Positions 1,766 to 60,622 of a DNA stretch of 64,000 bases are shown piece by piece. A program made the translations under genes and the position numbers. How positions within the stretch are numbered: the stretch's first letter is position 1; each line of letters starts with the position of its first letter. This DNA is from a virus. Where the stretch lies: the IMG/VR virus record IMGVR_UViG_3300025314_000012, one strand, 5' to 3'. The notes under the pieces are model-generated. The model did no database searches. It was not told the origin of the DNA and saw only the letters and a list, made by a program, of their open reading frames with translations.

Positions 1766-4642
1766 TTATAATCCATCAAAATAGATTCTTGTTCCTGAAT
1801 TATATAAGTCAGCTATTTCTGCATCGGTTAAACTTGCATCGAATATTATAGCCTGTCCTAAATATCCTAATACCGAAAACCCTGTTGGAACTGCGCCAAG
1901 TACAAGTGGATTTGCGGTATTTCCAATGGATACAAATGTTCCTGTATCACCGCTTGTTAAAGCAGATTTCACACCGTTTATCCAAATTTCAATATTACCT
2001 GTTGTAATATCTTTTACATTTACAACTATATGATAATCTGTATTTGTGGATAGTTTTGTATTAGAAGTCCTTTTCTTATATACAGTGCTGCCACCACCTG
2101 AATAAATAGTGATAGATACCGCACCGTCTGTTTCTATTGCAACATTATATTCCACTGATTTTGCTAACAAAAATCGTCTTACTGCATGGTTTGTGTGCCT
2201 TGACCAAAACCCAAATGCAAAACTATTTTCATTGGAAAAAGTGAAATTATCATTGTCTCCAATTGTATTATACGAATTTTGTAAAGTGTTGAATAAATGA
2301 CTTGCCCCGAATGCTTGAGTTTGATTTATGGTAACTTCTGCTCCGATTGAACCATTATATGTAGCTGTTTCGTCAACCAATGTACTGCCTTCTGTTTCCT
2401 TTAAGTCATACCATGCCATCGCCTTAACTGATAGTCCAGAGTAGTTCACCTGAACAGTGTCAGATAAGTATTCTGATATATTTCCTGCCAAATCCCGGCA
2501 ATAAGCAAACAATACATTTTGCCCTTCACCACTAAATGTGTATGAAGTTGGTACTGTTGAACTCCAATTTGCATCCGTAGTTTCAGGTGTTGTTGCCGAT
2601 TCTGTAACTATATATTGTCTTGCATCGGTTGATGCCGTGAATGTTGATATTGCCACAGTTAAGGTTGTGATTGTATCTGGGATCACAAAAGCAATCATTG
2701 TTGGCGGTATAGCATCTGGATATGGAGTAATACCATATAGCTTACCATTTAAAATTATGCTTGTAAAAGGTTGCAATGTAAAATTACCTATAATAGTATC
2801 TCCTGTAACATTGTTTTTAGCAGTTGCATTATTTAGATAGTAAGTCAAAGGGGTTGTATTTTTATTGAAAAATATGTCCTCCGTTTCATTTGGGTATAGT
2901 GCAGTTATGATATTACTACTATTTGTATCAAACCCAAATTCAGTTTTCCATTCTGTAAAATCTAAATATACCCCTCCTGCGCCAACATCTCTAAACACAT
3001 CTGTTCTATGTCTGTCAATGTAAATATTGCTATCTGCTGAAAATGTATTTATAAAACTACTGCTCCCATTTGCCAACGTTGGGTTTATGGGCGTGGTCAG
3101 GTAATAATCCTGCGTTGTACTTTTATTGCATACTGTGTTAAAATTAAATAAATTACCATCGTATTTTTCGGCAATTCGCATTGATTTAGGACTATCAAAT
3201 ATGCTATTTCCTCTTACAATACAATCTTTTGTAAAGTGAAGAAATATAGCAATGTCGTTTGGCGAAACAACAGTATTATTTAAAACAGAAACGTTTGTAG
3301 TTCCTTCGTCAAGGTAGATGCCAATATCAGTTGAATTTTCTATAATATTATCCCGTATCACCGTTCCGCTATCCGTCTGCAATGCAGATGATGACGATAC
3401 AAACGTATATATACCACCACCGTCAGGTAGTAAGCTCCCTGTCCCATAAATGTAATTCTTTTCAATAATAGAGTTTTGCCCTGAAAAATTAATTCCATTA
3501 TATGCGGTATTTCGTATAATATTGTGTGATACTAAATGATTATTGCCACTAAATGACAACCCATAACAATACCCGTTAATCATTCCATTAATACCTAAAT
3601 CATAAAAATTAGCAATATTGGAAATAGTGTTTCCTTTTATTTTTCCGTTTAAAGAATTTGCAGCTATACCCACAAATTGAGTATTGTCAACTGTATTGTA
3701 ATTTATCTGATTATAATTACCTGCACTTCTAATCCCGTATTCCTCACATCCATATATTTCACAATTTTCAATTGTTATATTAGAATTGCCAGTATATGCC
3801 TCTATCCCTGTTGATTTAAAATGTAGCAGACTAATGTTTTTAATTGCAATATAATTTTTACTTGCAATCACAATTCCATTATCAATTACCGAACCTCTCA
3901 CATTAACAGGGCTTTCTCCATCCAATGCCCAAAAATAAACCGAATCTTTTGCGGCGTCGTAAAACCATTCACCAGCTTCATCCAAAAATTCATATTTATT
4001 CGTCATAAAGAAGTCTGCACCTGCCGCCCATGTTGAATAACCCAATGCGCTGTTAAATGTAATTGTTTGACCTGTTGATGCTGTTATCAATCTTGTTTCA
4101 TATTTCCATTTATTTGTATTAATTATAATATTTGCATCCTTATAATAATCTGCTGCCTGACTTGCAATTTCGGTAGAAGTGAAATTAGTAGCATCTACTT
4201 TTGTTGTTACGTTAAAAATGCCTTCATTCGGATAACGTGCAGCCCTCATTTTAATATCTTCATCAAATAATTGCGTAACTATGTCAGAAACGTATGCCCT
4301 GTAAATATTACCACTATGCAACGTCCAACCCGTTATTACTTCCGAACCGTAAATCTTTGGTTTTGCACCCGAACCATAAGCCCCGATTAAAATATTCAAT
4401 CCACTTGAACCGCTTTGACCGATTGTAATTGTTCCGTACCATTCCCCACCACGTTTGAAAAGGATTGCATCTCCTGCGCTAAAAGTAAATGAGTTCACCT
4501 TATCAATCGTCTTCCAAGCCCTTGAATTTGTTGAACCTGTACCATTATTTGCATCATTTCCCGTTGGGGAAACATAGTACGTTGTTGCGAATGCCTGAAT
4601 TATGAGTATCAGGATTAAGATTGTAAATAGTATCTTTTTCAT
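1766..4642 (-). CDS. right-handed beta-helix (pectin-lyase-like) protein with C-terminal LamG/concanavalin-like domain and signal peptide
   Basis: YYVSPTGNDANNG...AWKTIDKVN...GDAILFKRGGEW start; parallel beta-helix repeats (GGIY, GIYLDEGT..V.V.NN); LamG-type end (IFDASLTDAEIADLYN). Confidence 0.8.
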   Translation of the reverse strand: MKKILFTILILILIIQAFATTYYVSPTGNDANNGTGSTNSRAWKTIDKVNSFTFSAGDAILFKRGGEWYGTITIGQSGSSGLNILIGAYGSGAKPKIYGSEVITGWTLHSGNIYRAYVSDIVTQLFDEDIKMRAARYPNEGIFNVTTKVDATNFTSTEIASQAADYYKDANIIINTNKWKYETRLITASTGQTITFNSALGYSTWAAGADFFMTNKYEFLDEAGEWFYDAAKDSVYFWALDGESPVNVRGSVIDNGIVIASKNYIAIKNISLLHFKSTGIEAYTGNSNITIENCEIYGCEEYGIRSAGNYNQINYNTVDNTQFVGIAANSLNGKIKGNTISNIANFYDLGINGMINGYCYGLSFSGNNHLVSHNIIRNTAYNGINFSGQNSIIEKNYIYGTGSLLPDGGGIYTFVSSSSALQTDSGTVIRDNIIENSTDIGIYLDEGTTNVSVLNNTVVSPNDIAIFLHFTKDCIVRGNSIFDSPKSMRIAEKYDGNLFNFNTVCNKSTTQDYYLTTPINPTLANGSSSFINTFSADSNIYIDRHRTDVFRDVGAGGVYLDFTEWKTEFGFDTNSSNIITALYPNETEDIFFNKNTTPLTYYLNNATAKNNVTGDTIIGNFTLQPFTSIILNGKLYGITPYPDAIPPTMIAFVIPDTITTLTVAISTFTASTDARQYIVTESATTPETTDANWSSTVPTSYTFSGEGQNVLFAYCRDLAGNISEYLSDTVQVNYSGLSVKAMAWYDLKETEGSTLVDETATYNGSIGAEVTINQTQAFGASHLFNTLQNSYNTIGDNDNFTFSNENSFAFGFWSRHTNHAVRRFLLAKSVEYNVAIETDGAVSITIYSGGGSTVYKKRTSNTKLSTNTDYHIVVNVKDITTGNIEIWINGVKSALTSGDTGTFVSIGNTANPLVLGAVPTGFSVLGYLGQAIIFDASLTDAEIADLYNSGTRIYFDGL

Positions 4643-31672: not shown

Positions 31673-32698
31673 TTAAGAACCTATATTAAACTTCTCACAA
31701 TACTTGTCAACAAGGTCTGCCAACTTATCTGTCGTCTTTACCTCTATCCCTTCAAGTTTGCATATCTTTGCCAACGCAGTGTAACCTAAGTCTTTCACTT
31801 CGTCTTTTGTTGCATACCCCGTTATTCCAAGTTCTGCATACACAATTGCTCTGAATGATTTATCTTCTATTACCTTTTCAAGTAACACACCCTCTTTGTC
31901 TGCTACCTCATTGGGTTTTAATGTCAGTAAACATTCTATGTCCTCACCCGCTGCACAACTCCACCATGATTTGTCTTTCTTGTTGTACCGTAGTGATTCT
32001 TCGTTTATTGCTTTCCTGATTGTAGTTGCTGCACGCATCTTACCCTTATTGTCGGTAAGTTCCTCAAATCGTTGAAAGTTTACATACTTGCTACCACTCG
32101 CCTCTCCGTTTGTGATTTTGTGGTATAGCGCATTTCTTAATTCAAATACACCCAACTTATTCACGTCTTCTATTCCAAACACCTCTGCTACCTGCCTCAA
32201 TAATGGAATGTCTTGCGATACGGGTGATTTCTTGCTGTAAATAGCATGCCTAATGTCAAGGTCTTCTACTAATTCTTTTGCTTCTTTTTCTGCTTTGGCT
32301 TCGAAGTCTTCAAAATATACTTTGCCACTTTTTACCTGTGGACAGTGTGTTTGTAAGAACCACACCAACTCTGCATCCTTTTCCTCAAACATATAAGGGT
32401 CGCTAATCTTTAGGTGGTTCCCATTTTGATACCTGAACTTGCCGTTACGTGGCTTCGCATCACTCCACCGCCACAAACCATCCCAACTCACCAAGTCAAG
32501 GAAAAACTGCTTCTTTGGCTCGTATTTTCCTGAAATGTTTTTTACTCTTACTCCATTCGGATACCTTAATTGACAAAATCCTTTTTTGTCCTTGCCGAAG
32601 TTGTTTAACTTAAACTCCGCAATTGTTTTACTAATCTCTTTGGCTAACTCGGTATCCTTTTTCTTGTAGTCAACCATTTCTCCATTATAAAATATCAT
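31673..32698 (-). CDS. hypothetical protein downstream of capsid genes
   Basis: 341-aa ORF; C-terminal small helical (HeH/Rho-N-like) pattern YTALAKICKLEGIEV. Confidence 0.65.
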   Translation of the reverse strand: MIFYNGEMVDYKKKDTELAKEISKTIAEFKLNNFGKDKKGFCQLRYPNGVRVKNISGKYEPKKQFFLDLVSWDGLWRWSDAKPRNGKFRYQNGNHLKISDPYMFEEKDAELVWFLQTHCPQVKSGKVYFEDFEAKAEKEAKELVEDLDIRHAIYSKKSPVSQDIPLLRQVAEVFGIEDVNKLGVFELRNALYHKITNGEASGSKYVNFQRFEELTDNKGKMRAATTIRKAINEESLRYNKKDKSWWSCAAGEDIECLLTLKPNEVADKEGVLLEKVIEDKSFRAIVYAELGITGYATKDEVKDLGYTALAKICKLEGIEVKTTDKLADLVDKYCEKFNIGS

Positions 32699-38250: not shown

Positions 38251-41200
38251 TTATGCAAAATTCCAATAGTCCTCTGCGTTATACGAATCAGAATTATCGC
38301 TTAGCATTTCTTCTGCGTATGGAGTTTCTGCACCCATTAGACACATACCATGTGCTGTTAACCTATCATAGTGTCTCATCATCTCCATTCCAGTAATCTC
38401 CTTACATTCTTGTAGATATTCAGCAAATGCTTCCACGTGACACCTGTTTTCAAGGTAGTCCCTTGTTCTACTGAATAGCAATTGCTTAGACCTTTCCAAC
38501 GAATCACACCCCGCTTTTTCCTTGTATCTTCCTGTCTTTAAGTCTATGTCGTAAAGAAGATATGCTCCATATTCTTTTTCGATAAAATATCTAAGCGTTT
38601 CATCTAAGTTTGTTTCAGGGTACACCATCGCCCCAAAATATATCGCTGCCTTTAACGTATCTTCGTTAAACTCATTTGAATTTGCGGGTCTATGTCTGTA
38701 AGACAACACAAACTTATATGTGTCCCAATCTTTTATTTCCTTACCGCCATCAACTGATGGGTCGTATTTAAGTAGTATAGCTATACCACCGTCAGACAAC
38801 CTACTTTTCTTGCCAAGTGAAGCACCTGTCCGTGAATCCTGTTTTGTTCCGAACTTAAACGGGTCGCACCCTAACACGTACTTGTTTGGATACTGTGGTC
38901 GCCACATTGGAATATGTTTTCCCTTTATGGAACTATATGTGCTTATCTGTATTCTTTTATTAGATACGGCAGGACTTGGAAATTCACTTATCCTAAACCT
39001 ACCATTTTCTTCATCGTGTACAAATTCAACATCGCTTCCAAACCCGTTTACCCACACTAAATCACCACGCACTGTTTTGTCTTCTCTCCTTAATTCAGCA
39101 AGCCTTTCATCTATCCTTTCAAGTGGAAATCCTATTGAACCTGCTTCTCCTAACCAACAGTCTGCATACTTAATAGGGAACAATTTCTTTTCTTCCCTAT
39201 ATGCTCTCATGGATTCTGAATCACCACGCTGAAGTAACACGTCTCTTTTGCCCTGTAAAAATTCAAGTGCTGTCTGTGTGAATCCTTCTTCTCTCTGATA
39301 GTCCAATATCGTATCTTTAACCGAAAATCCATAGCTGTCAATAAACCCGTCAAGACCCTCTGTTGCGGGTATAAACAACCTAAATAGTCCAGAAAATGTT
39401 TGTCCGCTTGACTTTATCCTTTGATAAAAGTTTGACGTATTTGCCAAGAACCTGTAATCAAAACTACCATCCGTTAATTCATCACTCGTTGATGGATAGT
39501 CTAAGTATCCAAATATGATTCTTCCATTTCCTTGTGCGCAACAGTTCTTATTTACGTCATGGCGTTTTAATACACTGACATTGGAAGTATTGTGCGCTAC
39601 CGTATTGTCTTCCAATAAAAATCTTCTGTTTCCGTCTATAACAAATCCGTAATAATCACCAACGCCAATACTCTCTACCGAAAATCCTGTATGTAACGGA
39701 TTTCTCGTATTTGGATGATGCGGCTTTCTTTCGTATCTTTTCCTGTTTACCTTACACGGTATTCTCCACAAATCAAGTCCATATATAGAAACACGAAATA
39801 CCTCACATTCATAAACACTTCCGTCTTCTCTTTTCATTCTTGCAATCTTTGGATACATAGAACAACTAAATCCCAAATCAAGTGCAAGTCTTCTTATATT
39901 TTCGGCAAGAACTTTTCTTTTTTGTGTTACTTCATATCCTGTTCTATTGCCTGTATATGCGTATCCATCCGAATCAATTAATCCCGCTAATAAACTAAGT
40001 CTGTTTTCTTCTGAATCAAAAAGGTAATCTTTTGGAATATGTTTGTTACCTATAACACCTATCTTTCTTAATTCTTCTATTAAGCTAAAATTCTTTTGTT
40101 TAATTATCTCGTAACCACGATAATTGTCTTTTGTTTTTATAGTCCAATTTATAGAACTAATAGTAGTATCAAAATATGACGCTATTTCTCCTACTGAATA
40201 AAACACAAGTTCTTCTACACCATTATTAAAAAAATATGTATATTCTGATTTTCTGGATAGATGATATGTTATTTCATCCCTAACCATTTGAGTATCGTTT
40301 AATGATGAAAACTCTTTTAAATAATCAATTATTTCAATGTCTATATTCGTAATATTAACACCACCATGATACCCATCACCAAGCCACAATCCCAAAAAAT
40401 AAGGTTCTACTACGTGCTTGTTCTCTGTGTATTTGACTGGTTTCTTATACATAACAGATGCAAGTTTGTGTCTTGGTTTCATTTTAAGATATTCCTTTAT
40501 GGTTTTCTTAAAATAATCACCACCTCTAACTCCGGGTATGGCATTACCATCACTTGACTTCAAACATAATATATGCTCGCTGTTACAAGTCCACTCTTTC
40601 CCCTGATTTGGAATTATCTTATACATTTCGTCAACACCACGTGCTAACCTTAAAACATTTCTCGGCAAAGAATCATCCCCCATCAAAACATCCCCAACTC
40701 GTATATCTTCAACATTCTTTACAGAACCATCAAACATTCTTATTTCCGTTCCTTTTCCAAAACATTTTCCGGCTTCGTCAACAAGTAGGTATGTCATCTT
40801 TTTACCATCGAAATACTTCTCTGATGCCGTTGTTGCATACACAAATTTTGTTTGTAAGGAATCAACTGCGTATTCGTTTTTGCCTACATCGAATTTTAGT
40901 GAATCAGAAGTTCTACCCGAAGACGTAAACGGTTTTATCCATATAGGAAACTTATCAAACGATGGAAGAAGTTTCATCTTAAAATGTTCTTCTGCGTTAT
41001 CGTTACTATAACTTTGAATACCACCACCGTCTGTTCCTATCGTCCTTGTAATTACCTCAACTCCATTGCTAATTGACTTATTTGTATTTCCTGAACGCCT
41101 GTTCTTTGCCTGATGCTTTCCATAGCATATTCTTCTTGGCACGTGTTTGTTGCCAATCCTATCCACTAAGTTAATCATAGAATAAGTTCCGTCTTCATTA

Positions 41201-47168: not shown

Positions 47169-47437
47169 CGACAAAGATAATAATTTATTTTTATCCCCAA
47201 AATATATACATAATTATTTCACGAAGATAGTTAAAATAAATTTAGTGTGCAAGTATTTTGTCAACTATTTTGCGCAATATACTATACTTTGTGTATAATA
47301 TTGCACTTAGATGCTAAAATATTAGCCAAAGTTGGTTATAATTGACAAATTAGCCAATATACTGCATATTTTGGTACATATTTTAGGAACGTGGTGCAAA
47401 AATAGTATTTTGCGGGATAAGTTTGTGTTATTTGTCG

Positions 47438-47445
47438 TATCTTTG
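47438..47445 (+). promoter_or_regulatory. Bacteroidota -7 promoter box, start of the early arm
   Basis: TATCTTTG divergent from the boxes at 47172 and 46684. Confidence 0.7.
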
Positions 47446-47517
47446 CGGTTAAAATTATAACGGTTTGTGTATGTTTTGAAAGCCACAGCACGAACACTCG
47501 AATTTAATTTTAAAAAT

Positions 47518-47904
47518 ATGAAACGAATAAATAAAAACATTGGTGCTAAAGTACAGGTTAGAGAAATAACAGTTGAAATTAACCCACAAGTTAAGTGGAA
47601 AAAACTTAAGAAGGTTACTGGTGTTATTGTTGAAAACGATGGGTATGAGCATTATTATCATACTTGCAGTGGTGGATATACTTATGTAACCAAGCACTTA
47701 ATTAAAAACGATTGCTATAAAACATACGCTATAAAACTTGATAATAATGTAAAGGACATTGAAGGTAATAACATTATTGTAGTACGAGAGTTTGATACTA
47801 AGTTTTTGGAACGAATTGAAGTACCTAAGAAAAAAGTTACAGAAAAAGATTACTTTAATGCTAAAAATGTTATTGAACGATATGAGTCTGAGAATGGCTT
47901 ATAA
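47518..47904 (+). CDS. hypothetical protein
   Basis: Probable ATG 47518 within track ORF 47467..47904; its TAA is part of a TAAC site. Confidence 0.6.
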   Translation: MKRINKNIGAKVQVREITVEINPQVKWKKLKKVTGVIVENDGYEHYYHTCSGGYTYVTKHLIKNDCYKTYAIKLDNNVKDIEGNNIIVVREFDTKFLERIEVPKKKVTEKDYFNAKNVIERYESENGL

Positions 47905-47983
47905 CGGATAGTGGTATGTTCTGAACCGATAAATCACCACGAAATTTAAGACGAGAACGAATGTTAAATTAAAATTTTATACA

Positions 47984-48349
47984 ATGAATATAGTTGAAAA
48001 TAAACATGTAAAATTTGATATTGATACAGTTGAAGGCGCTGAGAAATATCTTGAAAGCGAAGGCGTAAATGTTGCCGAATACTTACAAAAAGGAATTGAA
48101 GAATTAAAAAATAATACAATGAACGAAAGAGAAGTACACTTAAAATTAAGTGAAGTAAAAATTGACAACGACAACCTTGATTACATAAAAATGACAGGGG
48201 AGATATGTGGCAAATTAAGAGACGACATAGTAAAATTATTTGCTATGACTGATGTTACCGGGGAGTGCGAACACCCGTATCGCTCATTAAGCGAAGATAA
48301 AGATGGTTTGTATTGTATGGATTGTAAAAAAAGCCTTTCGCCAATTTGA
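47984..48349 (+). CDS. hypothetical chimeric protein crossing an attC-like core site
   Basis: GTT at 48254 read as V91; C-terminal CxH...CxxC module; second internal start context at ~48119. Confidence 0.65.
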   Translation: MNIVENKHVKFDIDTVEGAEKYLESEGVNVAEYLQKGIEELKNNTMNEREVHLKLSEVKIDNDNLDYIKMTGEICGKLRDDIVKLFAMTDVTGECEHPYRSLSEDKDGLYCMDCKKSLSPI

Positions 48350-48355
48350 GCATTA

Positions 48356-48497
48356 CCGGTAACGAAAAAGTATAAAAGAAGTAACTATGCAAGAAGAAAT
48401 AATTAACGAAATACGCAAAGTTAAAACAGGAGAATTAACACCAGAAGAATGTGCTGACAAGCTATTTCTTTTATATGGTATTATGTTTCAGGTTTGC
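48356..48497 (+). repeat. attC-like element B
   Basis: CCGGTAAC, then stem GTATAAAAGAAGTAAC / GCTATTTCTTTTATAT, then (A)TTATGTTTCAGG. Confidence 0.75.
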
Positions 48498-48581
48498 GTT
48501 ATTCATAATCCACAACCAGTTATGGGGATGGATAATGATATAATAGAGTATAGATGTTCAGAATGTGGTAAGCAAACTTGA
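48387..48581 (+). CDS. hypothetical protein starting inside the element B loop
   Basis: Crosses the core site in frame; C-terminal CxxH...CxxC. Confidence 0.65.
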   Translation: MQEEIINEIRKVKTGELTPEECADKLFLLYGIMFQVCVIHNPQPVMGMDNDIIEYRCSECGKQT

Positions 48582-48707
48582 ACATAACAAGTTTGTAAAC
48601 GAATAAATTATTGCAATAAAATCAAACTTTAATATTGGATACTGAGTTAAACGTGTGAAAAAAATAACAAAAATAAAAATCATTACCTTTATACATATCT
48701 TTGTGAC

Positions 48708-48968
48708 ATGAAAGAGGACGAAAAATACAACACCGACATTGAAGTTTACAACTTAGTAAACGACATAAAGAACATAGATGATGAATCGTGTTTCTACTTT
48801 AGGATGAAAGGTAACAGCGTGAGTATTGGGTACACAGGACTTGACCACACGCTAATCACAGGCTTTATAACGTGTATGGAACAGTATAAAGAGTTGTATG
48901 ACATTATCAATTCATCCGTGTTGATTTACGAAGAAGAAAACATTACAAGTGACATACGCGCAAATTAA
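48708..48968 (+). CDS. hypothetical protein
   Basis: Directly after the -7 box at 48696-48703. Confidence 0.65.
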   Translation: MKEDEKYNTDIEVYNLVNDIKNIDDESCFYFRMKGNSVSIGYTGLDHTLITGFITCMEQYKELYDIINSSVLIYEEENITSDIRAN

Positions 48969-49278
48969 TCAGAAAAATATCCTGCTTCAAATGGAAGTGG
49001 ATATGATTGCCAACAAGTACGTGTTACTTCAACAGCACTACACGCTGATGTCTGCCACACAAACTTTTTGCGACTTCGACGTATATAATTCTTTTGGTTA
49101 TCTTGGGTGGTATGAGGACGTGATGAAGTTCATTTGTAAAAACCACAAAGAGATAAAAAGGAAGTTTACGATGGATGAGTTCATGGAATTTGCGTGGCAG
49201 TTCCGTGTGAAAAAACTATCGAAGTTCCCAATGGAAACGATGGCTGACTTTAAGAAAATAAAGATAAGAAATGCTTAG
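48949..49278 (+). CDS. hypothetical protein
   Basis: 109-aa ORF in the early operon. Confidence 0.55.
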   Translation: MTYAQINQKNILLQMEVDMIANKYVLLQQHYTLMSATQTFCDFDVYNSFGYLGWYEDVMKFICKNHKEIKRKFTMDEFMEFAWQFRVKKLSKFPMETMADFKKIKIRNA

Positions 49279-49355
49279 CTTTATTGAAACAAACTATCAC
49301 TAATTTTGCTCAATATCAACGTTTGTGATATTATGCAAACATAACGATATTAAAA

Positions 49356-49448
49356 ATGATAAACTTTTTCAATGTTGACAATTTGGGGTTTATGAAAAGT
49401 AAGCCAGATAAGTATTATGATTTGGCGATTGTTGTATCAAAACATTAA
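49356..49448 (+). pseudogene. truncated 5' fragment of a DNA methyltransferase
   Basis: MINFFNVDNLGFMKSKPDKYYDLAIV aligns 13/26 with the N-terminus of 50050..50703 and breaks just before DPPY. Confidence 0.75.
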
Positions 49449-49480
49449 TGTATATTTGTAATAAATTAAAACATTAATAA

Positions 49481-50068
49481 ATGATACGAGATTCAAAACA
49501 ATTGCAAATCGGAAAAGCTGGAGAATATTTGGTTTGTGCTGATTTAATTTTAAAAGGATTTATAGCATTTCCAAGTGAACAAGGACTACCTTATGATGTA
49601 CTTTTAGACACAGGAGAAAAACTATTGAGGGTTCAAGTAAAAACGACAGAAAGACCACGTTTAGTTAAACAAAGAAACACGCCAATACCTGCATATATTT
49701 TCAGTATTAAAAGGGCTGGAGCAAATGGCAAAACACGCTACAATGAAAACGAAATAGATTTATTCGCTTTGGTTTGTTTAGATACCATAAGTATTGGTTA
49801 TTTATTAAATAAAGAAATGCCAACAACAATAAATATAAGAGTTGATAGCGAGCGTGGTAAATATTACGATGAAAAAGGATTATTGGATTACAATCAGGCT
49901 ATAAAGCTACATGAAAACATAAAAAATAAATCAGAAATAGGGAGAATGTTAAATATACAACAGGCTGTTGTAAGTAAATATTTACAACCAAATTACATAC
50001 CTTTTAAAACAAATGCAAAGTATTTTTCAGAATTTAAAAAAGATAAATCATGGTTCCTGACTATATAA
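49481..50068 (+). CDS. PD-(D/E)XK homing-type endonuclease with C-terminal HTH-like segment
   Basis: GKAGEYLV..DL..G......PYD.LLD....L.RVQVKT pattern; own -7 box at 49451-49458. Confidence 0.75.
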   Translation: MIRDSKQLQIGKAGEYLVCADLILKGFIAFPSEQGLPYDVLLDTGEKLLRVQVKTTERPRLVKQRNTPIPAYIFSIKRAGANGKTRYNENEIDLFALVCLDTISIGYLLNKEMPTTINIRVDSERGKYYDEKGLLDYNQAIKLHENIKNKSEIGRMLNIQQAVVSKYLQPNYIPFKTNAKYFSEFKKDKSWFLTI

Positions 50069-50703
50069 GTAAATCGGAAAATAATACAATAAATTTTTAT
50101 AACTGTGACTGTATTGAATTTATGCGGTCTATTCCTGATAATTACTTTTCTATTGCCATTACAGACCCGCCCTATGGATTAGGTAACAAATTGACAAATG
50201 GTGGCACTTGGTCTGTAAAATGGCAGGATAAGGGTGCTGATTGGGATAAAACGCCAACAAAAGAATATTGGGAACAATTATTTAGGGTATCTAATAATTG
50301 GATTGTTTGGGGTGGAAATTACTTTATAGAGCATTTACCAAATTGTAGAAACTTTATTGCTTGGCATAAACCATATATGGATGGTATGCACTCCATGAGT
50401 AATGTAGAATTGGCTTTAACTTCTTTTGATAAAAACGCAAAAAAAGTATCATTCAATAAAGACAAAGGAACAGAATATAGGATTCATGTAACCCAAAAAC
50501 CAATCTCCCTATACCGTTGGCTACTCCAAAACTACGCAAAGATAGGAGATAAGATATTTGATTCACATGGAGGAAGCATGAGTTCGGCAATAGCTTGCGA
50601 CATGGAAGGATTCGACCTTGACATCTGTGAAATCGATAAAGATTACTTCGATGCTGGTGTAAACAGATTTAACGAATACAAAAGGCAGTTAACTCTATTT
50701 TAG
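50050..50703 (+). CDS. N6/N4 DNA methyltransferase (beta-class order)
   Basis: DPPY precedes H.TQKP..LY.WLL...IFDSHGGSMS. Confidence 0.9.
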   Translation: MVPDYISKSENNTINFYNCDCIEFMRSIPDNYFSIAITDPPYGLGNKLTNGGTWSVKWQDKGADWDKTPTKEYWEQLFRVSNNWIVWGGNYFIEHLPNCRNFIAWHKPYMDGMHSMSNVELALTSFDKNAKKVSFNKDKGTEYRIHVTQKPISLYRWLLQNYAKIGDKIFDSHGGSMSSAIACDMEGFDLDICEIDKDYFDAGVNRFNEYKRQLTLF

Positions 50704-51089
50704 TTCTTCTGAAATAAACTTCTCCTATCTATTTTAATATTTCCTAAGTGAGCATACATAGCACTCTGCATATTCTTTGCAAACTTTCCTACTTCTTTAC
50801 TTCTATCACGTGAATACTTCACCATTTCATCTTCTATTGCACAGAAGAACTTTAAAAATTCACCAAATTCAACAGCACCGTTATCCACGTCATATTCGAG
50901 TAAGAACTTTCTAAATTTCCTTCTACGGTTTTCATTCACCCACGCCCACAGTTTCCTGCAACCTTTCCAACCGTGTTCAATACCGAGTTCCTGCCGTTGG
51001 TCGCCATAGAGTTTAATTAAGCGTTCCGCCTCTTCGGGTGTGGTTTCTGTAACGTACTTTGCTAAAAGTTTTGTGTCGCTAATATTCAT
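50700..51089 (-). CDS. hypothetical protein, inverted in the early arm
   Basis: Own minus-strand -7 box TATATTTG at 51105-51112. Confidence 0.65.
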   Translation of the reverse strand: MNISDTKLLAKYVTETTPEEAERLIKLYGDQRQELGIEHGWKGCRKLWAWVNENRRRKFRKFLLEYDVDNGAVEFGEFLKFFCAIEDEMVKYSRDRSKEVGKFAKNMQSAMYAHLGNIKIDRRSLFQKN

Positions 51090-51204
51090 AATCTTTTTTT
51101 ACTACAAATATAGTAATAAATATTGCTCGATGTGTTGTAAAACATAAAAAATTATGCTCATTTATACGAATTATTCATTATCTTTGCAGAAAAAAAAGTT
51201 ATGG

Positions 51205-51334
51205 TAACGTATGGTGCTATACGATGTGGCGGACTTTCAGCAGAAAGCCCAATACGAAGCACCACAGTTTGAATTAGTAAAAATATTTAACCGAAGCACG
51301 TCACCCGCCATATTGTATATCACTTGTTAGCGGA
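51205..51334 (+). repeat. attC-like element D
   Basis: TAAC, 19-bp stem (51214-51232 / 51305-51323), GTTAGCGGA. Confidence 0.8.
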
Positions 51335-51362
51335 TGCCCTTCTTCATAAATCATAAATAAAA

Positions 51363-51542
51363 ATGAAAATAGCAGTAATAGTAACAGTTTGCCATCAAAT
51401 AGGAATAGAAACTTGGAAAGACTTTCACACTACAAAAGTGTTTGAAGAAAATTCAACCATTAAAGAGATTGATGATTGGATAAAATCAATTAATAAAAAT
51501 GCAAGTTTCTCAGATGCTAAAATCTCGTTGTGTGTCGATTAG
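51363..51542 (+). CDS. 59-aa cassette gene (not in ORF track)
   Basis: MKIAVIVTVCHQIGIETWKDFH...; flanked by GTTAGCGGA and TCCGCTAAC. Confidence 0.6.
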   Translation: MKIAVIVTVCHQIGIETWKDFHTTKVFEENSTIKEIDDWIKSINKNASFSDAKISLCVD

Positions 51543-51599
51543 GGTTTCCGCTAACAATCTGCTAAACGAATATTTTGTTATACAAAACTTTGTAAATGT

Positions 51600-52391
51600 T
51601 TGATTATGAAACTATCAGTAATAACAACTTCTTACAACAAGTGTGAAACACTAAAACACGCAATCGACAGCGTGATTAACAACTTAATCGGAATAGACTA
51701 TGAGTTAATAATCGTTGACGATGGAAGCACAGATGGCAGTGTGGATATAATCAATTCATACACCGATAGTAAAATTAAGAAGATATTCACACCGCACTAC
51801 GGAATGTTGAACGCCTACAAAGTAGCACTTGATAATGTAAGTGGTGATTACATTACTTTTTGTGATTGTGATGACTACAAGAATCGTGGACTAAAGTTTC
51901 AGTTTCTAATGATGGCAGCGTTTAACCATGACCTTACGTGTTCACGAGCATACATTGATAACGGTAAAATAATTAAGTCAGACACACCGATTGAAGTGTT
52001 GGAGGCAGGATTGGCTTACGACAATGTACTGAAAGGTAAGGCGTGTGTTCACGCACAAACGTTAATGATAAAAAAAGACTACTTTGACAAGTACATAGAC
52101 TTCGATAAGTTTTTAGACTTCAACGTGTGGGATTTACCGATACTACTTGAAGCTATACGCCACACCAAAATGGTATATTTCGATTTCTACACAGGAACGT
52201 ACCGTGTGGGTACAGAAACAGCTACCAAGACAGAAAGTCGCTTAAAAAGGCTAAAACTCGTGTTAGGATACATGAAAATAAAGCTGTGGTATATTAGAAG
52301 GTATGGTTGTAAACCAACCACGTTTACCTACATGATTTATAAATTTACAAGGGATATGGTGAGTATAATATTTAAAAGGTGGAATAAATGA
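51600..52391 (+). CDS. family 2 glycosyltransferase
   Basis: LSVITTSYN...AIDSV...YELIIVDDGSTDGS...YITFCDCDD. Confidence 0.9.
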   Translation: MIMKLSVITTSYNKCETLKHAIDSVINNLIGIDYELIIVDDGSTDGSVDIINSYTDSKIKKIFTPHYGMLNAYKVALDNVSGDYITFCDCDDYKNRGLKFQFLMMAAFNHDLTCSRAYIDNGKIIKSDTPIEVLEAGLAYDNVLKGKACVHAQTLMIKKDYFDKYIDFDKFLDFNVWDLPILLEAIRHTKMVYFDFYTGTYRVGTETATKTESRLKRLKLVLGYMKIKLWYIRRYGCKPTTFTYMIYKFTRDMVSIIFKRWNK

Positions 52392-52609
52392 ACTATCTAA
52401 TTGAATACACGGCAAAGACCACACAAGGAGTTGTGATAAAGAGTGGCAAGATGCGTGTGAAAAACAAAATGAGTACACTCCACGCACAATTGTCATTTGA
52501 AGATTATCTGAAAAGCAAGATGCCAAATTTCGGTGTGTTGATAGTGCATGACTGCAAGGAGGAAATGGATAACGATTTCTTAAATATTTTTAAAGATATT
52601 TTTAAGTAA
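52388..52609 (+). CDS. hypothetical protein
   Basis: Coupled to the GT2 gene. Confidence 0.6.
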   Translation: MNYLIEYTAKTTQGVVIKSGKMRVKNKMSTLHAQLSFEDYLKSKMPNFGVLIVHDCKEEMDNDFLNIFKDIFK

Positions 52610-52686
52610 AAAAACTAAAGTACCGTAGGGAGGCTGTAAACGGGCGTGAGTGTACGATGGCTGATTGTAATAATTGTGGTGTTATA

Positions 52687-52818
52687 TAACGTTTTGGTGC
52701 TTGTTGTCAGTAGCGGATTTACAGCACAAATGTTTAATTGAAAATAAAAGTTGATATGAAAATAGAAATTAAAATTACCGATGATGCTGGCAATGTTCAG
52801 TTATACAATGTTAGCGGT
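52687..52818 (+). repeat. attC-like element E (degenerate arms)
   Basis: TAACGTT...AATGTTAGCGGT; TTGTCAGTA/TGCTGGCAA inner pairing. Confidence 0.6.
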
Positions 52819-52962
52819 TCGTTGCAACAAATAGTGTGGGACGGATTTCTAACAGCACAATACCAAGATGAACAATGGCATGACCAAGATACTTGTGATT
52901 TAATAGTAAAGAAATTAAAGGGAGAAAGTCCGCTTGAATATGCTGTCAGCAATGACCGATAA
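52738..52962 (+). CDS. hypothetical protein crossing the element E core
   Basis: GTT 52810 in frame (Val); stop is the TAA of the next TAAC; likely ATG 52756. Confidence 0.6.
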   Translation: MKIKVDMKIEIKITDDAGNVQLYNVSGSLQQIVWDGFLTAQYQDEQWHDQDTCDLIVKKLKGESPLEYAVSNDR

Positions 52963-53153
52963 CGGTTTAGCTATGTTTAGTTGCGAACAAATTAAAACGA
53001 AATATTATGAATGATTACGACTTATTGGAAAAAATGATTGAGGCATCATCAGCCTACGTTAAAGGTGAAATAAGCTCAAAAGAGTGCAGTGCAAAAATGG
53101 CAAGTTCATTAAATGCTCATAAAGAGCAATTAAATATAGCTTGTGTTAACCGC
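52955..53153 (+). repeat. attC-like element F
   Basis: ACCGATAAC, stem GCTATGTTTAGTTGC / GCAATTAAATATAGC, GTTAACCGC. Confidence 0.8.
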
Positions 53154-53300
53154 TGTGCTTCTGTTATCCCAACGACATGGTTAGACCCTTTATTGACAGG
53201 AAAAGATGCAGCATTAACTGGTGAGGCCGGTAAATGGGGATGCCCTGATATTGAAAACTTACTGAAAGCAATTAAAAACCGTATTGAGCATTGCGGTTAA
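53007..53300 (+). CDS. hypothetical protein starting in the element F loop
   Basis: GTT 53145 = V47; stop TAA inside GCGGTTAAC. Confidence 0.65.
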   Translation: MNDYDLLEKMIEASSAYVKGEISSKECSAKMASSLNAHKEQLNIACVNRCASVIPTTWLDPLLTGKDAALTGEAGKWGCPDIENLLKAIKNRIEHCG

Positions 53301-53433
53301 CGGTTTGCACATAGGCAATGTGGCGGACTTTGGAACGCTGAACTTTCTGCAACCACTAAACTTGATTTGAAAACGAAACTTAATATTAACCGAGAACCCG
53401 CCATATTGCCTATGTGCTGTTATAGGTAGGGCT
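53293..53433 (+). repeat. attC-like element G
   Basis: 20-bp stem GCACATAGGCAATGTGGCGG / CCGCCATATTGCCTATGTGC, GTTATAGGTAGGGCT; homologous to element D. Confidence 0.85.
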
Positions 53434-53453
53434 TCTCACAAACTTAAATAGAA

Positions 53454-53729
53454 ATGAAAAAAACAATTTGGAAATTTGAATTAGACGTTACGGATAAACA
53501 ATTTGTTCGTATGCCACAAGAAGCTGAATTATTATCAGTTCAAACACAAAATGAAACGCCTTGTTTATGGGCTTTAGTAAATCCCAATCAAGCAACAGAG
53601 GAAAGATGCTTTGAAGTATTTGGAACTGGGCATCCTGTTCATTGTGATATGGGTATTGATAGAAAATATATTGGAACGTTTCAGATGCAAAATGGCAGAT
53701 TAGTCTTTCACTTGTTTGAACGTCTTTAG
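53454..53729 (+). CDS. small conserved phage protein (DUF7352-like)
   Basis: MKKTIWKFEL...MP..AE.LSVQ.Q...PCLWA.V.P...R.F.VFGTG pattern recalled from phage hypothetical proteins. Confidence 0.5.
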   Translation: MKKTIWKFELDVTDKQFVRMPQEAELLSVQTQNETPCLWALVNPNQATEERCFEVFGTGHPVHCDMGIDRKYIGTFQMQNGRLVFHLFERL

Positions 53730-53803
53730 CCTTACCAATAACTATGTTATATGTGCAATAAAATGACGGCGATTTATATGTTAATTATTTCATTTACAAC
53801 CAC

Positions 53804-54115
53804 ATGAAACTATCACAACAAATAGCCAAGTACAAGATATACTTTGACAGGTCACGGACTTACTTAGGGTACATACAGCTTTTAATGATAATGAAACTGT
53901 TCTTTTCTGACATTAAGTTGTCGTACTTCGTTATCGTAGCAGGGGTGGTGGTTGGTGTGATACTACTGATAGTAATAGGCTATTTAGACACCAAGTTCGG
54001 CATCAGGTCGCGTGAGATGGAGAACAACGCATTGAACAACCCTGTGTATGTAGAAATACTTGATAAATTGAATAGAATAGAAAAAAATGTTGTAGAATTG
54101 CGATGTAATAACTAA
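53804..54115 (+). CDS. membrane protein
   Basis: Two hydrophobic segments. Confidence 0.6.
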   Translation: MKLSQQIAKYKIYFDRSRTYLGYIQLLMIMKLFFSDIKLSYFVIVAGVVVGVILLIVIGYLDTKFGIRSREMENNALNNPVYVEILDKLNRIEKNVVELRCNN

Positions 54116-58068: not shown

Positions 58069-58926
58069 ATGACACAAGAATTATCTCGTATAAAATTAGT
58101 AAGACTTGAACAGAAACGATTAGAGTACGTTGGTAAAATATACGGAAGTTGTGAGATAACCGAAATACTTAGGATGCCAGAGTACTACTCTGTAATAATA
58201 AAGTGCCATGAATGCGGCGGTGTGTCAAGACTTGAACTTAATAAATTCCTATCTAATCCAATATGCCCAATAAGCCATAATACCTCAAACACACAAGTAT
58301 CAACTAAGAAAACAAAATTCGTTACGCCAAAAAGATTTAAAAACCTTTCAGGACAAAAAATAGGAAGATTTACCGTGTTAGAACATATAGGTTGGCATAA
58401 ACCACCAAAAGGAAGACCAGTAGCTAAATATAAATGCGTATGCAAATGCGGTGAGCCGTGTGAACTTACGGCATCAGTACTAAAAGCAGGAAGAAAACTA
58501 TGTGATAAGGAATTTCAACAGCACAAAATAGAACAAGGCAAAAGGTCTGCTAAAAAAAGAATAAAGGATAAAATAGAAAACGGTGAATATAAAGAACCAT
58601 CATATAGGGACAGAATAAGCAGAAAACTATCAAAGTTTAGTAGATTGGTATATGACAGGTTCAACGGTGTGTGCCAAAAATGCAAAAACACATTCCCTAA
58701 ACAGAATACAGCATCACACCACATAATACCAATAAACACAAAACCAGAATTAGCACTTACATTATCTAACGGAATACTACTGTGCAAAAACTGTCACGAT
58801 AACTTTCACATGATATACGGAAGGATAGACTTCGACCATCTCCAGATATTTAATTATATAAAATCAACAGAAGTAACTCAGTACGACAGATACAGTAATT
58901 CCTCTGAGAACGAACGATTAGGTTAG
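58069..58926 (+). CDS. HNH homing endonuclease with N-terminal Cys-containing DNA-binding repeats
   Basis: CQKC...SHHIIP...NGILLCKNCHDNFH; NLSGQKIGRFTV...YKCVCKCG. Confidence 0.85.
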   Translation: MTQELSRIKLVRLEQKRLEYVGKIYGSCEITEILRMPEYYSVIIKCHECGGVSRLELNKFLSNPICPISHNTSNTQVSTKKTKFVTPKRFKNLSGQKIGRFTVLEHIGWHKPPKGRPVAKYKCVCKCGEPCELTASVLKAGRKLCDKEFQQHKIEQGKRSAKKRIKDKIENGEYKEPSYRDRISRKLSKFSRLVYDRFNGVCQKCKNTFPKQNTASHHIIPINTKPELALTLSNGILLCKNCHDNFHMIYGRIDFDHLQIFNYIKSTEVTQYDRYSNSSENERLG

Positions 58927-59926: not shown

Positions 59927-60493
59927 TTAATTTACTACTTCAGCTATTTTGTAGAACGCACCATTTTTATATTGTATTTGTATAGTATTCCCTTGTTCGT
60001 CTTTATAGATATTTTTATCCACACGCGAATAATTAGTAATATCAATAATTGATTCCTTGTGTTCGGGTAGTTTTATTGGCTTGTGTTCTTTGTGTATTCC
60101 GTATTCTTTTAGTCTTTTAATTATAGCCTGTCTTGTTACGTCATATTTATCTGCTATTTCTGTAATGGTTTTATTATTCATGTACATATTAGTTATTTCG
60201 TCATAGTGTAAAGTAAGGGTTTTAATATATTCAATCACACGCGCCGGGTCTATGTAAAACCATTCACCGCGTTTATGATGAGGTTTAAAATGTTTGTGGC
60301 ATAGTTTTTCTATTTGTCTTGCATTCATTAATGGCATTGTTTGATGTTTAATAACTAATTCACACCCCGCACCCGTTTCTAATTCTATTAATCTTGTTTC
60401 GGGGTTCTGGCTTATTCCTATTTTGGTTATATCATACTCTTTGTTGTATATAACATAAACACACTGATTAACTGGTAATACTCTTTTATTCAT
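59927..60493 (-). CDS. GIY-YIG (T5orf172/MUG113-like) nuclease domain fused to an HTH
   Basis: VYVI...KIGISQNPETRL.EL.TG...IEKLCHKHF...RGEWF, then TITEIADKYDVTRQAI; start moved to MNKRV because a -7 box lies at 60518-60525. Confidence 0.75.
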   Translation of the reverse strand: MNKRVLPVNQCVYVIYNKEYDITKIGISQNPETRLIELETGAGCELVIKHQTMPLMNARQIEKLCHKHFKPHHKRGEWFYIDPARVIEYIKTLTLHYDEITNMYMNNKTITEIADKYDVTRQAIIKRLKEYGIHKEHKPIKLPEHKESIIDITNYSRVDKNIYKDEQGNTIQIQYKNGAFYKIAEVVN

Positions 60494-60622
60494 AATTATT
60501 ATATTAGTGTAACCATGCAAAGTTACATTATAATATTTTTTACAAAATAATTTTGTTTTGTTTGTTTATGTTGTTTATAGTATTTATATTTGTCTATTAT
60601 TAATCACAAAAATTAAAATATT

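Follow-up and report, generated by a model that had tools for sequence, protein, structure and literature searches.

Small phage proteins joined at hairpin cores in a putative integron-like cassette array

Introduction

Can a phage reassort parts of proteins at dedicated sites, much as an integron reassorts whole genes? The question is raised by a run of small genes at 47.9-53.8 kb on the plus strand of a 64,000-nucleotide (nt) stretch of viral DNA (IMG/VR record IMGVR_UViG_3300025314_000012; the whole stretch is called the window hereafter), where open reading frames (ORFs) start in the loops of attC-like hairpins and run across the hairpin core into the following cassette. A first-pass annotation of the letters had picked out four such genes, and proposed that all cross the core in one fixed frame and that the hairpins make up a device for joining any loop-encoded N-terminus to any C-terminus encoded by a cassette body. 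The window covers all but ~13 kb of its ~77-kb contig and is a tailed-phage genome in which structural genes occupy the minus strand as far as ~46.6 kb, and small early genes the plus strand from ~47.4 kb onward; its closest nucleotide matches are Flavobacterium and Nonlabens phages.

We conclude that the region is probably an integron-like cassette array without a recombinase of its own, in which the sites lie within reading frames and the cores would be exchanged by an Xer-like enzyme. Judged by sequence comparison, the array appears to shuffle half-proteins as well as genes. Integrons are understood as whole-gene shufflers in which fusions across sites are rare accidents; here, sites inside reading frames are the rule. 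If a recombinase makes the junctions, phages could invent small early proteins combinatorially, and this class of proteins includes host-takeover and anti-defence factors. The locus would also provide a concrete pair of substrate and enzyme for an integron-like system of Bacteroidota about which little has been described and, for annotation, explains both the mosaic homology of these small ORFs and the disagreement of gene callers over their starts.

Hairpin modules and cassette bodies

On the plus strand between 47.9 and 53.8 kb, hairpin modules alternate with cassette bodies. A hairpin module reads TAAC | G(G/T)TTY, an arm of 16-20 nt, a loop, the complementary arm, and T | GTTA; a cassette body reads GTTA plus an arm of 5-12 nt and ends in the complementary arm plus TAAC. 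Paired body arms are found at 48254/48363, 48480/48588, 51326/51555, 52810/52963, 53145/53301, and 53419/53742, and the core-plus-arm inverted repeats around the bodies of the four genes listed below are GTTACCGG/CCGGTAAC, ATTATGTTTCAGGTTTG/CAAACTTGAACATAAC, GTTAGCGG../..CCGATAAC, and GTTAACCGCTGTGC/GCATTGCGGTTAAC. In three cases the TAA within TAAC also terminates an ORF, at 47904, 52962, and 53300. The four genes in which a loop-encoded N-terminal segment (the head) is read into a body are built from the following modules.

47906-48253, plus strand: head module H1, decayed in the window; 5′-arm remnant GGTATG at 47913-47918, head ATG at 48119, diverged 3′ arm encoding VKLFAMT
48254-48363, plus strand: body cassette C1; core GTT = Val91, arms GTTACCGG / CCGGTAAC, Cys/His tail, stop at 48347-48349
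48364-48479, plus strand: head module H2; arms of 17 nt with one mismatch at 48370-48386 / 48460-48476, ATG 48387 at the loop edge
48480-48588, plus strand: body cassette C2; degenerate core ATTA (Ile32), arms 48480-48496 / 48573-48588, CxxH...CxxC tail, stop at 48579-48581
52691-52809, plus strand: head module H5; spacer GTTTT, canonical 5′ arm at 52696-52716, ATG 52756 in the loop, weak 3′ arm at 52785-52795
52810-52963, plus strand: body cassette C5; core GTT, arms GTTAGCGGTTCG / ..ATGACCGATAAC, stop TAA inside TAAC
52964-53144, plus strand: head module H6; spacer GGTTT, arms 52969-52984 / 53126-53141, loop of 141 nt with ATG 53007, 39 codons
53145-53301, plus strand: body cassette C6; core GTT = Val47, arms GTTAACCGCTGTGC / GCATTGCGGTTAAC, no start of its own, stop TAA inside TAAC

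The first-pass annotation had read the core triplet as a whole codon in all four genes, and the positions are exact: GTT 48254 is codon 91 of ORF 47984-48349, GTT 52810 is codon 25 counted from TTG 52738 or codon 19 from ATG 52756, GTT 53145 is codon 47 of ORF 53007-53300, and 48480 is codon 32 of ORF 48387-48581, with the qualification that the core there is ATT (Ile), not GTT. Its picture of a start codon within the loop and a translated right arm is clean in two of the four (starts at 53007 and 48387), borderline at 52756, and fails at 48119, which has no stem in the window; decay has thereby affected two of the four stems. The Cys/His C-terminal modules are real, two bodies carrying C/H...CxxC motifs, and loops do supply starts to start-less cassettes, as body 53145-53301 lacks a start and relies on the loop ATG. 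When the two halves of each protein were tested separately, three of the four genes yielded the same half with different partners and the junction at the Val, whereas 48387-48581 has full-length homologues only. Pfam and PHROGs assign no function to any of the four.

Heads and bodies in different combinations

Relatives combine a given head with different bodies and a given body with different heads, and identity between them breaks within cores of 4-6 nt. Gene 53007-53300 (H6-C6) has relatives of both kinds. Specifically, i) L040 shares hairpin and head with the window from TAAC to TGTTA (93% identity), beyond which lies another body bounded by arms of its own, GTTAGCCA / TGGCTAAC; ii) L041 shares the body from TGTTA to TAACGG, but differs in the hairpin and head before it and in the hairpin after it; and iii) at each breakpoint between window, L040, and L041 the partners have only the 4-6-nt cores in common, TAAC(GG) or (T)GTTA, on both sides of the hairpin. 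So short an overlap at the breakpoints speaks for a site-specific reaction at TAAC/GTTA rather than for homologous recombination; and since TAAC and GTTA are the same half-site in two orientations, such a reaction would explain exchange on both sides of the hairpin. Because exchange occurs on the TAAC side too, the hairpin with its head is a separate module, not a part of the upstream cassette as it is in integrons, and the earlier definition of a cassette as a body plus its downstream hairpin needs revision.

The H6 stem of 16 bp is significant (its score was reached by 0 of 300 shuffles, p<0.003), and its 3′ arm is translated as EQLNIAC. The C6 protein sequence (IPTTWLDPLLTG...) is found under more than 10 unrelated N-termini. 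AlphaFold2 predicts helical-hairpin heads, and in ORF 53007-53300 a single helix crosses the junction (pLDDT 89.8); a Foldseek search of this model against the PDB returned nothing below E=2, and the back-translated pattern of the ORF found no match in viral contigs.

Similar relations hold for gene 52756-52962 (H5-C5). The C5 family (IWDAFLTA.YQDEQW) forms the C-terminus of more than 15 proteins whose unrelated N-termini are 10-100 residues long, and P0081 has the same head and arm (…VSGSL) as H5, followed by another tail. The H5 hairpin itself is borderline in the shuffle test (p=0.06), with a canonical 5′ half (TATAAC|GTTTT) and a 3′ arm of 11 pairs, 4 of them wobble.

The head of gene 48119-48349 (H1-C1) is found in 20 proteins. 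Residues 1-46 are common to 19 database proteins, conservation stops after the Val that matches GTT 48254, and ~15 unrelated tails follow, many of them with CxxC pairs (alignment A1). Among the ten DNA loci with this head (the window and nine relatives), the core is GTT in 9 and the tail has its own arm pair ending in TAAC in 7-8; the genes upstream of the head in the relatives are unrelated. H1 has no significant stem in the window (shuffle test, p=0.99), where 48099-48246 is 83% identical in nucleotides to LR756500; an intact hairpin of ~20 bp, with a 3′ arm encoding VKLFAIP, is present in relatives L034, L035, L037, L038, and L039, and canonical hairpins with this arm are seen in the DNA of nine relatives. 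Synonymous codon pairs of the head are 95% identical in the translated 3′ arm compared with 71% over the loop; the arm is thus under constraint both as nucleic acid and as protein. For 48119-48349, AlphaFold2 predicts a helical-hairpin head and a small beta unit, at moderate confidence (pLDDT 70).

The H1 loop holds an extra in-frame module (module A, ATG 47984-48118, 45 codons) that is read into the head. The start region of module A (47966-47989) nearly repeats that of the head (48101-48124), and the same three-part protein (module A, head, and tail) occurs in a JGI metagenome (P0001, 87% identical).

The fourth gene, 48387-48581 (H2-C2), has a significant stem (score 28, reached by 0 of 300 shuffles, p<0.003); its homologues are taken up below.

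Reading frame

A single fixed frame, as claimed by the first-pass annotation, holds for the four genes but is not general. A tally was made of non-redundant hairpins whose loop holds an ATG and whose core is crossed by an ORF of at least 30 residues; 27, 5, and 9 of the 41 ORFs are in frames 0, 1, and 2, respectively. The same order of frames gives 21/5/6 for phage loci, 6/0/3 for bacterial loci, and, by a hand count from the same lists, 19/2/6 for ORFs of at least 60 residues. Core and arm sequences are themselves open in frames 0, 1, and 2 in 88, 38, and 59 elements; much of the frame-0 preference thus arises because these sequences create stops in the other frames, and against a null of ~0.48 the frame-0 excess is modest, with an estimated p of ~0.01-0.03 that is bracketed by the tail probabilities of the phage set. 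Chance agreement of the four genes (1/27) was considered, and rejected on the comparative data.

Exchanges would often yield in-frame head-plus-body proteins, given that GTT remains a whole codon in most heads and start-less bodies; this may be under selection, or may be a by-product that is tolerated where sites lie in coding sequence. The contention that the hairpins were selected for making chimeras finds no support. Heads also occur alone: in Polaribacter phage P12002L (L042), which has the same hairpins, gp41 and gp57 (32494-32691 and 39521-39706, minus strand) are heads that begin in loops and terminate at the core or shortly past it. In these two hairpins the arms resemble those of H1 and H6 while the loops differ, so that loops seem to vary independently of arms.

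The hairpin family

Hairpins beyond the window were collected with spacer-aware scans, which replaced two earlier designs: an ungapped TAAC..GTTA anchor scan missed hairpins because the spacer is asymmetric, and a loose TTA/TAA arm scan performed no better on the real sequence than on shuffles. The elements so found lie overwhelmingly on the gene strand (87 against 7 in phage loci, 117 against 1 in bacterial loci). Stems are of 16-24 bp with an asymmetric internal loop (5 nt against 1 nt), terminal loops range from 20 to more than 240 nt, and many loops carry a leader, an ATG, and a helical head of ~20-45 codons; of 71 non-redundant elements from bacterial loci, 60 measure 110-129 nt from AAC to GTT. 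[T/C]AAC and GTT are near-invariant, the core being GTTAT in 33, GTTAG in 20, GTTAC in 8, and GTTAA in 5 of 77 non-redundant elements. Under strand-neutral scoring, stem mismatches are G-T in 140 cases and A-C in 28, indicating that pairing is kept on the coding strand; all three clear hairpins of the window (H4, H6, and H7) have their G-T wobbles on the plus strand.

A widespread type is represented in the window by a hairpin and the cassette that follows it.

53302-53418, plus strand: non-coding hairpin H7 of the widespread 'GTGGCGG' type; arms 53307-53326 / 53398-53417
53419-53742, plus strand: ordinary cassette C7; arm GTTATAGGTAGGGC, conserved leader, ATG 53454, then TAG and an arm ending in TAAC

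A pattern derived from H7 retrieved 28 IMG/VR contigs and more than 120 bacterial contigs, mostly Flavobacterium. At the viral loci homology starts sharply at TAAC|G, spans the hairpin, the GTTA core, and a variable 10-nt arm, and continues through a conserved leader to the ATG. Over these viral and bacterial contigs the ~118-nt hairpin and 35-nt leader are ~88-90% identical (window 53298-53453; L001 3001-3156; L003-L030), and are followed by ~17 unrelated ORFs of 59-118 residues, each closing with TAG and an arm ending in TAAC. The arm after GTTA complements the arm before the next TAAC, 230-380 nt downstream, with compensating changes in six arm types across the 28 IMG/VR contigs. The claim that cassettes carry paired arms rests mainly on these six covarying types, in which 14-16 of 16 positions pair at 20+ loci, and not on an ungapped 10-nt arm score, which is noisy (at least 8 in 6 of 15 cassettes, compared with 11% in mismatched controls). 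The same ORF can also be followed by different sequence immediately after TAAC (L012 compared with L022, and L017 with L021).

Searches against Rfam at gathering and permissive thresholds identified no family, and gave a single noise-level RNase P match at 53307-53421. Cassette ORF 53454-53729 is a clear DUF7352 / phrog_3848 protein (E ~1e-30), the sole small gene of the stretch with a family assignment.

A candidate recombinase

In L037 a tyrosine recombinase of 285 residues is encoded at 848-1705, two genes past a gene with the H1 head, and its homologues occur at nine bacterial loci. At five Flavobacterium chromosomal loci (L117, L118, L156, L088, and L092) a hairpin array lies just past the 3′ end of the recombinase gene on the opposite strand, and in L117 and L118 the array begins no more than ~25 nt from that gene (3326-4366, minus strand, in L117). 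Profiles in NCBIfam place the array-side enzyme between XerA/XerC/XerD and the integron integrases. Its best match is NF040815 (216 bits, cut-off 220); TIGR02249 matches in two pieces at 203 bits (cut-off 265), and the IntI-specific middle segment is missing. In L088, L092, and L111 the ORF homologous to the recombinase is ~575-580 residues long.

In the head-bearing modules the reading frame passes through the 3′ arm and the GTT core, as Val, into the body. These observations suggest a mechanism in which i) the exchanges would arise by site-specific recombination at the cores; and ii) the likely enzyme would be an Xer-like tyrosine recombinase that comes from the host or from related phages and acts on the hairpin folded in the coding strand. 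Contigs from four other runs that cover 47400-54000 belong to the same phage and have no joints that skip cassettes, which is uninformative and should not be read as a negative result; they contain one weak joint with 20-nt sides (48119>48973), and there were no RNA runs.

Counter-evidence and alternative explanations

Several observations weigh against exchange at the cores by such an enzyme: i) the scanned ORFs of the 64-kb window include no tyrosine recombinase, nor does the complete hattifnatt9-1 genome, which has the same hairpins; ii) no excision or exchange event has been directly observed; iii) the seven homologues of gene 48387-48581 are all full length and give no sign of shuffling; iv) the reading frame across the core is preferred rather than fixed; v) conservation in the GTGGCGG type passes through the GTTA core to the ATG while the ORFs beyond differ, which simple core exchange does not explain; vi) ~11% G-U pairs and a strict strand bias also fit an RNA structure; and vii) P12002L_attC1, a short hairpin predicted as an attC by HattCI and the one member of this class that has been assayed, was the single site among six from phages for which no verified IntI1 product was obtained (PMC9892861). 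This last result counts against recombination of these hairpins, yet fits a different cognate enzyme.

Among the alternatives, the one that survives best would dispense with a dedicated recombinase altogether. The hairpins would be hot spots for general, microhomology, or template-switch recombination between co-infecting phages, as has been suggested for the PeSL (promoter-stem-loop) motifs of T4-type phages, and only whole-module recombinants would survive. We think this unlikely. The array-bearing phages do lack a recombinase, junction elements of ~150-190 nt that are ~90% identical between unrelated phages offer ample homology, and a leader conserved past the core fits exchange anywhere in a long shared element; however, the 4-6 nt shared at the breakpoints between window, L040, and L041 falls short of what homologous recombination needs, hairpin types with unrelated stems have invariant TAAC/GTTA cores, and the Flavobacterium chromosomal arrays adjoin a specific tyrosine recombinase.

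Less likely again is that hairpins and arms are mainly RNA structures of early mRNAs (start-region insulators, or sites of processing or stability), the chimeras being ordinary mosaicism filtered by module integrity. This would leave no route for unrelated ORFs to come between identical flanks, and must contend with breakpoints that fall exactly in the cores, with the linkage of arrays to a recombinase, and with the lack of any Rfam family match, even though it accounts well for the 5:1 ratio of G-U to A-C mismatches and ~11% G-U pairs on the coding strand, for start codons in A-rich loops, for the enclosure of each ORF by arms, and for the nucleotide-level constraint on the translated arm; RNA and DNA roles are in any case not mutually exclusive.

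Finally, it is very improbable that one gene family under diversifying selection, in the manner of leader-plus-core peptides or polymorphic C-terminal toxins, accounts for a conserved head with a hypervariable tail. Alignment A1 does resemble a family of leaders and cores, with a CxxC...CxxC theme recurring in many tails, but similarity is lost abruptly at one codon in both DNA and protein, tails carry inverted-repeat arms of their own that end in TAAC, the same bodies turn up beneath unrelated heads, and no modification enzymes are encoded nearby. A leader-core reading of the kind known from ribosomally synthesized and post-translationally modified peptides (RiPPs) was likewise rejected on the DNA evidence from the H1 loci.

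We therefore return to site-specific exchange at the cores, of which a more ambitious version can be framed: that Bacteroidota phages and their hosts share an Xer-driven system whose sites are phased with the reading frame (GTT as Val on the way in, the TAA of TAAC as stop), and that the reassortment of heads and start-less bodies is selected rather than incidental, a prokaryotic-virus counterpart of exon shuffling. This is possible, but we hold it only tentatively and on balance doubt it.

Comparison with known systems

Clusters of attC sites without an integrase (CALINs) have been reported in virulent phages (Qi et al. 2023, PMC9892861). Like integron attC sites, the present elements are imperfect hairpins with an inverse core ..TAAC, a core GTTA.., paired boxes, and a variable terminal loop; like integron cassettes, each cassette has one small co-oriented gene and a start that complements its own end; and as with integrons and CALINs, arrays in host chromosomes stand beside a tyrosine recombinase of the Xer/IntI lineage, and phages have arrays that lack one. 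The differences are equally specific: i) the associated recombinase lacks the IntI-specific insertion, and neither the window nor the hattifnatt9-1 genome encodes an IntI; ii) integrons have a single exchange point, G|TT, and a hairpin tied to the upstream ORF, whereas breaks here occur at both TAAC and GTTA, and the same hairpin has different neighbors upstream and downstream; iii) integron sites fold in the bottom (non-coding) strand, while pairing here is kept on the coding strand; iv) the near-invariant [T/C]AAC and GTT recall the integron inverse core RYYYAAC and core GTTRRRY in part, while the bases after GTT do not follow RRRY; v) the sites routinely lie inside reading frames, unlike attC; and vi) recombinase and array are convergent in the Flavobacterium chromosomes, unlike the divergent intI-attI layout of classical integrons.

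Shufflons and the invertase switches of tail fibers (R64 Rci/sfx, Mu Gin, P1 Cin) also employ a recombinase at short in-frame repeats, giving a constant N-terminus alternative C-termini by inversion. The outcome is alike in that a head is joined in frame to alternative bodies; shufflons, however, invert within one gene of one genome, whereas here every module points the same way, hairpins serve as the sites, neither half is constant, and exchange is seen between genomes.

In class 1 integrons, ORF-11 of attI1 provides a translation start, and 'fused gene cassettes' are found on rare occasions (PMC8876359; PMC4670013). Here too a recombination site starts a start-less cassette and in-frame fusion across the boundary occasionally results, but ORF-11 is a single short ORF and fused cassettes are accidents that follow attC loss, whereas many of our loops encode heads of 20-45 residues, in many combinations. 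The PeSL motifs of T4-type phages, each a promoter plus stem-loop, flank ORFs in hyperplastic regions and have been proposed to allow modular shuffling (PMC2839356, PMC4122927). PeSLs likewise are conserved stem-loops bordering small early genes of unknown function; they differ in being non-coding promoter-terminator composites that recombine by homology, as opposed to elements with invariant 4-nt cores, covarying arms, coding loops, and a linked recombinase. Our literature searches turned up no account, for these phages, of hairpin loops that encode protein or of chimeras between heads and bodies.

Other features of the array

The array contains four further features.

47902-47905, plus strand: TAAC core closing the upstream cassette; its TAA stops ORF 47467-47904
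51205-51325, plus strand: non-coding hairpin H4; TAAC at 51205-51208, arms 51213-51232 / 51305-51324, G-T wobbles on the plus strand
51326-51555, plus strand: ordinary cassette C4; its own leader, ATG 51363, arms GTTAGCGGATGCCC / GGGTTTCCGCTAAC
52681-52690, plus strand: palindrome GTTATATAAC; by direct reading, an R′ arm abutting an R″ arm

At 49481-50703, in the middle of the array region, a gene for a PD-(D/E)XK endonuclease runs into the start of one for a DNA methyltransferase. Farther on are genes for an HNH endonuclease (58069-58926) and, on the minus strand, a T5orf172 protein (59927-60520); none of these four proteins is recombinase-like. A 73-residue ORF at 52388-52609 overlaps the stop of a glycosyltransferase gene and is followed by only a mutated core (GTACCGT); its 61%-identical homologue in L011 (8321-8622) lies wholly within the 246-nt loop of a hairpin with 23-bp stems. 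Just downstream, the perfect palindrome GTTATATAAC, which has the remnant of a broken hairpin (52642-52680) on one side and head module H5 on the other, is read as an 'empty cassette', that is, a pair of arms without content.

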